From: Escherichia coli
GTDB taxonomy: Bacteria > Pseudomonadota > Gammaproteobacteria > Enterobacterales > Enterobacteriaceae
Assembly: GCF_041248615.1 (NCBI RefSeq)
Contig: NZ_CP158426.1
Length of the DNA stretch: 64,000 nt
Direction: 5' to 3' (one strand)
Shown here: positions 8,489 through 11,400 of the stretch, in pieces
How positions within the stretch are numbered: position 1 is the stretch's first letter
Layout: each line of letters starts with the position of its first letter
Program-made: the position numbers and the translations under genes
Notes under the pieces: model-generated
What the model was told of the DNA's origin: nothing
Database searches by the model: none
What the model saw: only the letters and a program-made list of their open reading frames with translations

Positions 8489-11400
8489 TTACGCCTTCTC
8501 AATGTTGACTAAGAACGCTTTATATTCCGGCGTTTGCGAGTTTGCATCACCGACATTCGGCGTCAGAGTGTTAGCGATATAACCTTTACGCGCGACACCC
8601 TCAAAGCCCCAGTGGATTGGAATACCCACCGTTTCAACCTGCTGACCGTTTACATTCAGCGGCTTCAGACGGCGCGTTACCACAGCCACCGCGCGGATAA
8701 AGCCACGCTTGCTGGATACGGTGACACGGTCGCCATTGGCGATGCCTTTCGCCGCCGCCAGCGTTTCGCTGATTTCCACAAACTGTTCCGGCTGAGCAAT
8801 GGCGTTGAGCAATGCATGCTTAGTCCAGGTGTGGAAGTGCTCGGTCAGACGATAGGTCGTACCCACATACGGGAACTGCTCTTTTTTACCCATCCGCAGC
8901 GCGTCTTGTTCATACAGACGAACGACCGGGTTAGACACCACGTTCGGATGCAGCGGGTTAGTGCCCAGCGGCGTTTCAATTGGCTCGTAGTGTTCCGGGA
9001 ACGGACCTTCCGCCATTTTGTTGATGGCAAACAGGCGTCCCATCCCTTCCGGCTGCATGATAAACGGTCCGGTTAGTGTACCTGGCGCGGCATTGCCGAA
9101 GTCCGGAATATCGTTACCCGTCCACTTGCTGCCGTTCCACTGGATCAGCATCCGTTTCGGATCCCACGGTTTACCGTTGATATCCGCCGAAGCACGGTTG
9201 TAGAGTACGCGACGGTTGAGCGGCCACGCCCAGGCCCATCCCAGCGTATTCCCCAGACCGGACGGGTCGGAGTTATCGCGGTTAGCCATCTGGTTGCCCT
9301 GCTCTGTCCAGCTACCGGTGTAGATCCAGCAAGAAGATGCGGTTGTACCGTCATCACGCAGATGCGCAAAGCTACTCAGCAACTGACCTTTCTTCGCAAT
9401 CAGCACGCCATTGGCATCATAGAGATCTTCCAGCGCGTAGCCGTTGTTCTCTTTAGCTACTTCGTCAGATTGCGGTTCGTGCGGCTGCTTGTAGTTCCAG
9501 CTCATCTTCATCAGCGGTTCTACGCCTTTACCACCTTCGGCCTGGTACAGCTCGCGCAGATGATGGTAGATACCCGCCAGAATTTCGCCGTCGTTACGCG
9601 CTTCGCCCGGCGCGTCCTGACCTTTCCAGTGCCACTGCAACCAGCGACCGGAGTTAGCAATAGAACCATCTTCCTCAGCAAAGCAGGTCGAAGGCAGACG
9701 GAATACTTCAGTCTGAATAGACGCAGGATCGACATCGTTCGACTCGCCGTGGTTCTGCCAGAAGGTAGAAGTTTCAGTCACCAGCGGATCGATAACCACC
9801 ATATACTTCAGCTTGCTCAGGCAGCTTACCACTTTGTTTTTGTCCGGGAAGGACGCAACCGGGTTAAAGCCCTGGCAGAAATAACCGGTGACTTTGCCTT
9901 CATCCATCATGTTGAAATACTTGATGACGTCGTAGGTCTGGTCCCACTTGGGCAGCCAGTCGTAGCCCCAGTTGTTCTCTTTCTGCGCAGCATCGCCGTA
10001 GAAAGATTTCATCAGGCTAACGAAGAACTTCGGATAGTTGCTCCAGTAGTTCACCTGATCAGCCAGCGTCGCTTTCGGCGTGTTCGCTTCCAGATACGAC
10101 TGCAAATCAACCTGTTTTTCTGACGGCAGCGTCAGATAACCCGGCAGGCTGGTAGAGAGCAGGCCTAAGTCGGTCAGCCCCTGAATGTTGGAGTGACCAC
10201 GCAATGCGTTCACGCCGCCACCGGCCATACCCATGTTACCGAGCAGTAACTGGATCATCGCCATAGTACGGATGTTCTGCGCACCCACGGTGTGCTGCGT
10301 CCAGCCCAGCGCGTAAAGGAAGGTGGTTGTGCGATCCGGTGCGCTGGTGGAGGCCAGCACTTCACACACTTTCAGGAAGTCGGCTTTTGGCGTACCACAG
10401 ATGTTTTCTACTACGTCCGGCGTGTAGCGGGAAACGTGCTCTTTCAGCAAGTTCCACACACAGCGCGGATGAGTCAGTGTTTCATCGCGTTTCGCATAGC
10501 CGTTTTCATCGAACTGATAGTTCCAGGACGATTTATCGTATTGACGTTTTTCAGCGTCGTAGCCGCTGAACAGACCGTCTTCGAAAGCAAAATCATCACG
10601 CACCAGCAGACTGGCGTTGGTGTAATGCTTAACGTATTCGGCGTTGATTTTGTTGTTTTCGATCAGGTAGCGCAAAACGCCAGACAGGAACGTAATGTCC
10701 GTACCGGAACGAATAGGTGCGTAAATATCCGCTACAGAAGCGGTACGCGTAAAACGGGGATCGACAACGATCAAGGTTGCATCGTTGTTGTTTTTCGCTT
10801 CCATCGCCCAGCGGAAACCGACGGGATGCGCTTCAGCAGCGTTACCGCCCATCACCATTACGACGTTAGCGTTTTTGATATCCACCCAGTGGTTGGTCAT
10901 CGCACCGCGACCAAATGTTGGAGCAAGACTTGCTACCGTTGGTCCGTGTCAGACGCGCGCCTGGTTGTCTACCGCCAGCATCCCGAGGGAGCGGGCAAAT
11001 TTCTGGGTCAGCATCCCGGTTTCGTTGCTGGCACCGGAGGCACACAGCATACCGGTAGAAAGCCAACGGTTTACCGTTACGCCCTGCTCGTTCTTTTCAA
11101 TAAAGTTAGCGTCACGGTCAGCTTTCATCAGCTTCGCAATACGGGAGAATGCTTCATCCCAGCTAATGCGCTGCCATTTGTCAGAACCTGGCGCACGATA
11201 TTCCGGGTAGCGCAGACGGTTTTCGCTGTTGACGTAATCCAGCAAACCGGCCCCTTTCGGGCACAGCGCACCACGGCTTACCGGATGATCCGGGTCACCT
11301 TCAATGTGATAAATCGCTTCTCTGGCGTTTTTCGCGCCATCACCCAGGCTATACATCAATAGCCCGCAACCTACGGAACAGTATGTGCAGGTGTTACGGA

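Follow-up and report, generated by a model that had tools for sequence, protein, structure and literature searches.

The fdnGHI locus

The window, a stretch of 64,000 nucleotides from Escherichia coli contig NZ_CP158426.1 (RefSeq assembly GCF_041248615.1), carries on its minus strand the formate dehydrogenase genes fdnG, fdnH and fdnI (Table 1). The fdnGHI genes encode the nitrate-inducible, periplasm-facing formate dehydrogenase-N, and their surroundings, in the order yddG-fdnGHI-yddM-adhP, are those of K-12. RefSeq labels the porin gene adjoining yddG as ompC; at this chromosomal position K-12 presumably carries ompN. An IS200 copy (tnpA with its STnc490 leader RNA) lies directly downstream of fdnI, at a place where K-12 has none. 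A second IS200 copy is found at about 45309-46012, adjoined by IS1414 (IS256 family; 46013-47326), which is flanked by a 9-bp duplication, and a short match to a group II intron domain occurs at 32552-32660, beside an Rhs element and ISAs1 remnants. Upstream of fdnG, a regular-expression scan returned one FNR-like TTGA-N6-TCAA and a few heptamers of a NarL-type pattern, which do not by themselves indicate function.

Table 1 Features of the fdnGHI locus, in window coordinates
Feature	Position	Strand	Basis
fdnG CDS, formate dehydrogenase-N alpha subunit, 1015 aa	8489..11536	-	translation; 1kqf_A; TIGR01553; RefSeq
Predicted twin-arginine (Tat) signal peptide of FdnG, MDVSRRQFFK...ALAQA, residues 1-33	11438..11536	-	SRRQFFK in translation; cleavage position predicted
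UGA codon 196, almost certainly recoded as selenocysteine	10949..10951	-	sole internal stop; opposite X196 of 1kqf_A; SECIS_3 positions 4-6
Predicted bacterial SECIS element, full SECIS_3 extent; folded stem 10949..10902	10896..10954	-	RF01989; identical to K-12 fdnG and fdoG
Apical stem-loop, nt +15 to +32, GGUAGCAAGUCUUGCUCC = ((.(((((...)))))))	10920..10937	-	fold; covariation; predicted SelB-binding part
fdnH, iron-sulfur beta subunit	7592..8476	-	TIGR01582 482.1 bits (cut-off 334.7); RefSeq annotation
fdnI, cytochrome b gamma subunit	6946..7599	-	NF007558 486.5 bits (cut-off 339); RefSeq annotation

The minus-strand frame 11536..8489 comprises 1016 codons, that is, 1015 sense codons including codon 196 and a terminal TAA, and translation finds stops at codon 196 (TGA) and codon 1016 (TAA) and nowhere else. 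The TGA, with its T at 10951 and GA at 10950-10949, reads in context CAG GCG CGC GTC TGA CAC GGA CCA ACG GTA GCA AGT CTT GCT CCA on the minus strand, translated as NQARV*HGPTVASL. The remaining two frames of the same strand and stretch contain 51 and 61 stops, so a 1015-codon frame interrupted by a single stop lies far beyond chance. Past the TGA, 819 more codons stay open without a frameshift. A mechanical list of open reading frames nevertheless breaks the gene into two pieces, 10949..11536 (195 aa) and 8489..10900 (803 aa), the latter beginning at the first ATG past the TGA.

With Cys substituted for the TGA, the FdnG translation aligns without gaps to PDB chain 1kqf_A, titled 'formate dehydrogenase, nitrate-inducible, major subunit', over residues 1-1015 (E = 0), and the UGA is matched with X196, a non-standard residue of that chain. 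The same translation scores 1624.6 bits over residues 2-1014 against the NCBIfam equivalog TIGR01553 (formate dehydrogenase-N subunit alpha; cut-off 814.2). V-U-H-G-P is the active-site motif here, its U aligned with X196 of 1kqf_A; PMC13188914 gives the motif UHxP for TIGR01553. Read from the translation, residues 4-10 are SRRQFFK and a cysteine cluster is arranged as C50-x2-C53-x3-C57...C92, both as in 1kqf_A, and these probably represent a twin-arginine signal and the site of a [4Fe-4S] centre, respectively. We take the cleavage position of the signal peptide from what is established for FdnG.

The paralogue fdoG was considered as the identity of this gene and rejected on the cut-offs of the gamma-subunit models, the neighbouring genes and a nucleotide identity to K-12 fdoG of about 76%. 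FdnI reaches 268.1 bits on the FDH-O gamma model NF007924, under its cut-off of 341. A 3.5-kb region containing the gene is 100% identical in at least 10 independently sequenced complete E. coli chromosomes, and on this identical DNA RefSeq places fdnG and fdnH beside yddG and annotates fdnG as one full-length CDS with no pseudogene flag. Together, these data support the assignment of the gene as an intact fdnG, the first gene of the fdnGHI operon, rather than fdoG.

A first-pass annotation had described a single in-frame TGA at 10949-10951 within a 1015-codon frame, placed it at the position of the active-site selenocysteine, and held that the split in the ORF track was no sign of a pseudogene. 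The translation, the alignment to X196 and the two pieces in the ORF list agree with each of these points; additional stops and frameshifts were looked for in fdnG and none was found, in keeping with the RefSeq CDS.

A predicted SECIS element at the UGA codon

When positions 8000-12500 were scanned against all Rfam families, one match exceeded its threshold: SECIS_3 (RF01989) on the minus strand at 10954..10896, scoring 84.3 bits (gathering score 63; E = 1e-19). The match covers model positions 1-59 of 59 and is not truncated, and an Rfam scan over all 64,000 nucleotides recovered it again. Model positions 4-6 correspond to the UGA, and this codon also starts the hairpin. SECIS_2, the fdhF-type family, was tried and rejected (28.8 bits for the window against a threshold of 70); the predicted recoding element is of the SECIS_3 class.

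We number the hairpin from the U of the UGA, which is +1 and corresponds to window position 10951. The RNA from +1 to +50 folds as ..((.((((((((.((.(((((...))))))).....)))))).)))).. at -14.6 kcal/mol. Its apical part pairs G15-C32, G16-C31, A18-U30, G19-C29, C20-G28, A21-U27 and A22-U26, leaving U17 (10935) bulged and G23, U24 and C25 (10929..10927; G23 at 10929, U24 at 10928) in the loop. Work on fdhF places the SelB determinants in a stem-loop 11 nt from the UGA, with a bulged U17 and a loop containing G23/U24 (PMC8659212). The window hairpin has the bulged U17, the loop G23/U24 and the 11-nt spacing at these positions published for SelB recognition.

The energy of the fold is not informative in itself. 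A 60-nt segment has a minimum free energy of -17.4 kcal/mol, no better than that of dinucleotide shuffles (mean -15.85, z = -0.53), 54 of 200 of which fold as well or better. Foldability on its own is therefore weak evidence, and folding energy was dropped as a discriminating test. What supports the SECIS is the covariance-model match, together with the conservation of the determinants and the covariation described below.

The first-pass annotation had expected a SECIS element immediately after the UGA, within 10900-10951, and had proposed to check it by folding. The SECIS_3 score places the element where it was expected, and the interval spans the UGA and nearly all of the hairpin (Rfam match 10954..10896; folded stem 10949 to 10902). 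The folding check succeeded in part: the expected hairpin forms, but its energy, at z = -0.53, does not discriminate.

Comparison with formate dehydrogenase genes of K-12

The locus was compared with the three formate dehydrogenase genes of K-12. K-12 fdnG (b1474) has the same gene length, operon and neighbours, and its SECIS obtains the same 84.3 bits on SECIS_3. Across the gene, 62 of 3048 nucleotides differ; the differences are scattered and involve no indels, and none falls within CDS nucleotides 451-677 (the UGA is nucleotides 586-588). The proteins are identical at 1010 of 1015 residues, the exceptions being E127D, L342F, S666A, P821L and N933A. The alignment with K-12 fdnG that had been suggested as a check on the first reading thus sustains it, with 86 identical nucleotides around the UGA, five residue changes and no indels.

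K-12 fdoG, which encodes the alpha subunit of formate dehydrogenase-O, is identical to the window from the UGA through 60 nt downstream; its SECIS likewise belongs to SECIS_3, with 84.3 bits, and both genes have Sec at codon 196. Over the gene as a whole fdoG is a paralogue, with about 76% nucleotide identity to the window fdnG, and its neighbours, fdhD and fdhE, are unlike those in the window.

The gene for formate dehydrogenase-H, fdhF, contains the best-studied bacterial SECIS and matches SECIS_2 (RF01988) with 87.1 bits. It encodes a 715-aa cytoplasmic enzyme with Sec140. The fdhF hairpin shares the layout and spacing of the window element, namely the UGA, the lower stem, G15-G16, the bulged U17 and the apical-loop G23/U24, and both hairpins begin with the conserved UGACACGG. 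In contrast, the apical helix of fdhF is one base pair shorter and closed by a GGUC tetraloop, with U18-A29 corresponding to A18-U30 in the window, and the sequence of its 3′ half differs.

Covariation in the apical hairpin across species

One genome per species was scanned with the pattern GTNTGACAYGGNCCNNCNGTNGC, which describes the coding context around the UGA with 16 bases fixed and places no constraint on the 3′ half of the hairpin. At least 120 loci matched, yielding at least 78 distinct 62-mers. Among the matches listed, the fdnG/fdoG type accounts for 65 of the 78 distinct sequences, with Pseudomonas, Burkholderia, Yersinia, Photorhabdus, Methylobacterium, Geomesophilobacter and others as sources. 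These 65 and the window sequence make up a gap-free covariation alignment of 66 sequences, a phylogenetically related sample among the matches listed. About 12 of the 78 were kept out of it: ten clear fdhF-type sequences, which are one nucleotide shorter in the apical region, and two divergent ones (L020, from Haemophilus, and L119). A Streptomyces sequence (L055) was also excluded; it has no similarity past the pattern and is probably a chance match.

Across the 66 sequences, among the matches listed, 99.8% of the cells in the apical helix are paired when the Rfam consensus structure is applied. Two apical pairs vary on both sides (33 cells) within this same set of listed matches. Columns 21:33 are GC in 50 sequences, AU in 9, GU in 4 and CG in 3, and columns 24:30 are AU in 45, CG in 18 and GC in 3, again for the 66 sequences among the matches listed. 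None of 500 shuffles of the 66 listed sequences matched the observed covariation score, and when the 3′ partners were slid by 1-3 columns in this alignment of listed matches, pairing fell from 92% to 27-49%. Columns 21, 24, 30 and 33 are the third-codon positions of Val, Ala, Leu and Ala, respectively. Since all four covarying columns are third-codon positions, the covariation is synonymous and not explicable by the protein.

Two more wobble positions do not vary at all in this set of listed matches. Column 27 (U24), a wobble base, is T in 66 of 66 sequences among the matches listed, in the codons AGT (40) and GGT (26). In the rest of these genes, about 13% of Gly codons are GGT, and there are 56 AGT codons to 285 AGC (AGT being about 16% of AGT+AGC). 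Column 18 (G15), which the pattern leaves free, is G in all 66 sequences among the matches listed, while ACG accounts for about one third of Thr codons elsewhere in these genes. The sequences are related and the counts are not independent events, yet the direction of the constraint is clear: these alignments point to selection at the RNA level, at synonymous sites.

The lower helix gives a different picture, with 84-86% pairing in the 66 sequences among the matches listed. The minimum-energy register of E. coli (A12-U45, with a bulged G47) differs from the Rfam consensus register, and pairs changed on both sides amount to 12:45 in the E. coli register and to none in the Rfam register, among the 66 sequences from the matches listed. 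It is conceivable, although we regard it as somewhat doubtful, that the lower helix of SECIS_3 is not a conserved structure, that RNA-level selection acts only on the 18-nt apical hairpin and its spacing, and that the remainder is a by-product of conserved active-site codons. Such a restriction to the apical part agrees with the published minimal-SECIS work on fdhF and adds little to it.

Conservation and decoding machinery in E. coli

Within E. coli, matches to a 96-nt segment containing the UGA and the SECIS come from 5433 records in 5425 of 5426 genomes, and identity is 99% or higher in 5363 of these records. At the scale of the 3.5-kb gene region, only 147 records are at least 99% identical, most lying at 95-99%. 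A search of the window for tRNA genes was negative, and selC is accordingly not local. Of 5426 complete E. coli genomes, 5424 contain the K-12 selC gene (tRNA-Sec), and selC is very likely present in the genome that carries the window. The full set of selA, selB, selC and selD would also be expected in this particular genome.

Discussion

These observations lead us to regard this E. coli fdnG as almost certainly intact, with the TGA at 10951..10949 as its selenocysteine codon (Sec196). Two 1991 papers on K-12 fdnG are cited in PMC13188914: one (Berg, Li, Heider and Stewart, J Biol Chem 266:22380) reported selenocysteine as the amino acid encoded by the opal codon, the other (Berg, Baron and Stewart, J Biol Chem 266:22386) an mRNA stem-loop essential for decoding the UGA. 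Because the window hairpin is identical to that of K-12, the 1991 report of stem-loop-dependent selenocysteine insertion concerns the same sequence.

In the proposed model, approximately 48 nt of mRNA starting at the UGA would fold into a bacterial SECIS hairpin, and its apical stem-loop (+15 to +32, with U17 and G23/U24) would be bound by the C-terminal domain of SelB, a specialised elongation factor that would bring GTP and Sec-tRNA(Sec). This tRNA is the selC product and has the anticodon UCA. The spacing between loop and codon is fixed at 11 nt, so that the tethered complex would come to the A site of the ribosome at the moment the UGA enters it; there it would outcompete release factor 2, and selenocysteine would be inserted. 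Sec196 would then ligate the molybdenum of the bis-MGD cofactor, where formate is oxidised, in a catalytic subunit that would be periplasmic after export via the twin-arginine signal SRRQFFK. For this gene, we infer SelB binding, competition with release factor 2 and molybdenum ligation from the literature.

Two other readings accept the stop codon as real. A nonsense TGA could have turned fdnG into a pseudogene, ending translation after 195 residues, and both the break in the mechanical ORF list and the unexceptional folding energy downstream of the codon would fit. We consider this extremely improbable, given that the TGA lies within an identical 96-nt segment in nearly all of 5425 E. coli genomes, as well as in K-12, and aligns with the selenocysteine of a solved enzyme. 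The 819 codons that stay open past it without a frameshift, the high-scoring SECIS that follows the codon, the preservation of the hairpin by covarying synonymous sites and the RefSeq record without a pseudogene flag all argue in the same direction. Alternatively, a near-cognate tRNA (Trp or Cys) might read the UGA without the selenocysteine machinery, the hairpin being a by-product of the coding sequence. The amino acids encoded by the hairpin (HGPTVASLAPTFGRG) are indeed conserved as active-site residues, and the protein accounts for part of the nucleotide conservation. Protein-level conservation would not, however, constrain synonymous third positions (21:33, 24:30, the invariant U24 and G15) against the codon preferences of the same genes, nor place the determinants exactly at the published SelB-binding positions. 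For K-12, both FDH-N activity and full-length FdnG are reported to be lost in selB or selC mutants. The stem-loop, as cited in a passage of PMC13188914, is reported to be essential for decoding this very UGA, and near-cognate read-through is accordingly very unlikely in our view, if marginally less so than a pseudogene.

A third possibility, an error of sequencing or assembly behind the TGA in the window, has nothing in its favour and a vanishingly small probability: 5363 independent E. coli records match the 96-nt segment at 99% identity or more, and the 3.5-kb region is 100% identical in at least 10 independently sequenced genomes. Recoding of the UGA as selenocysteine is thus by far the preferred reading of codon 196.

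The gene, fdnG, is a classic bacterial example of UGA recoding. Its selenocysteine UGA and SECIS hold nothing new, both having been shown experimentally in 1991, and the present comparison leaves that picture as it was. For this locus the result matters for annotation only, as naive ORF calling could mislabel fdnG as a pseudogene; a correct record would carry a single CDS of 1015 aa (11536..8489) and a translation exception for Sec at 10951..10949. The cross-species counts, in turn, illustrate cleanly how selection on the RNA acts at synonymous sites of a coding sequence.

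Insertion elements and gene context around fdnGHI

Downstream of the formate dehydrogenase-N operon, the window departs from the K-12 arrangement, in which no insertion sequence separates fdnI from yddM, whereas here an IS200/IS605-family element sits ~45 bp beyond the fdnI stop codon. This insertion could have replaced or displaced the terminator region of fdnGHI. The second IS200 copy of the window lies beside an IS1414 that is flanked by a 9-bp target duplication and is 100% identical to the copies in NZ_LT599825.1, which holds 14 of them; strain TUM14771 is collinear with the window here, except that IS1414 is missing.

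Collinearity with TUM14771 also places the group II intron domain match with a truncated ISAs1 transposase on one side and, on the other, a pentapeptide-repeat gene that follows an RHS core protein. The match probably represents a fragment of a group II intron, associated with the Rhs/H-repeat region.

On the other side of the operon, the porin gene adjoining yddG occupies the chromosomal position of ompN on the K-12 map, between yddG and the yddL/yddK region. Beyond it, the window differs from the yddL/yddK of K-12: a hypothetical gene is present in part, together with one for a leucine-rich-repeat protein.

Features in the window
Feature	Coordinates	Strand	Remarks
IS200/IS605-family element	6181-6902		between fdnI and yddM; transposase and leader RNA STnc490
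tnpA ORF, fdnI-side IS200	6292-6750	minus	
STnc490, IS200 leader RNA, fdnI-side copy	6760-6883	minus	Rfam RF01405, 146 bits
Porin gene, 366 aa	12908-14008	plus	adjoins yddG; 'ompC' in RefSeq annotation of identical region
Group II intron domain D1-D4-2 match	32552-32660	minus	Rfam RF01999, 48 bits (threshold 36)
Second IS200 copy	45309-46012		contains STnc490
STnc490, second IS200 copy	45328-45451	plus	
IS1414, IS256 family, 1314 bp	46013-47326		directly adjoins second IS200 copy
IS1414 transposase ORF, 402 aa	46085-47293		

Selenocysteine context and upstream region of fdnG

The cross-species pattern scan also found the V-UGA-H-G-P context in Streptomyces sp. ODS25 (locus L055, 509-531, minus strand). 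With neither sequence similarity nor a SECIS-like hairpin downstream of its UGA, this locus is probably a chance match, and it was left out of the covariation alignment.

Expression of fdnG is under anaerobic and nitrate control. A regular-expression scan of its upstream region (11537-11767, minus strand) returned a single FNR-like TTGA-N6-TCAA site, TTGAGGTAGGTCAA, 133 nt upstream of the start codon, just preceded by a TACCGCT heptamer that fits a NarL-type pattern of our own definition. These putative FNR-like and NarL-type sites, which are only regular-expression matches, are consistent with the anaerobic and nitrate control of fdnG.
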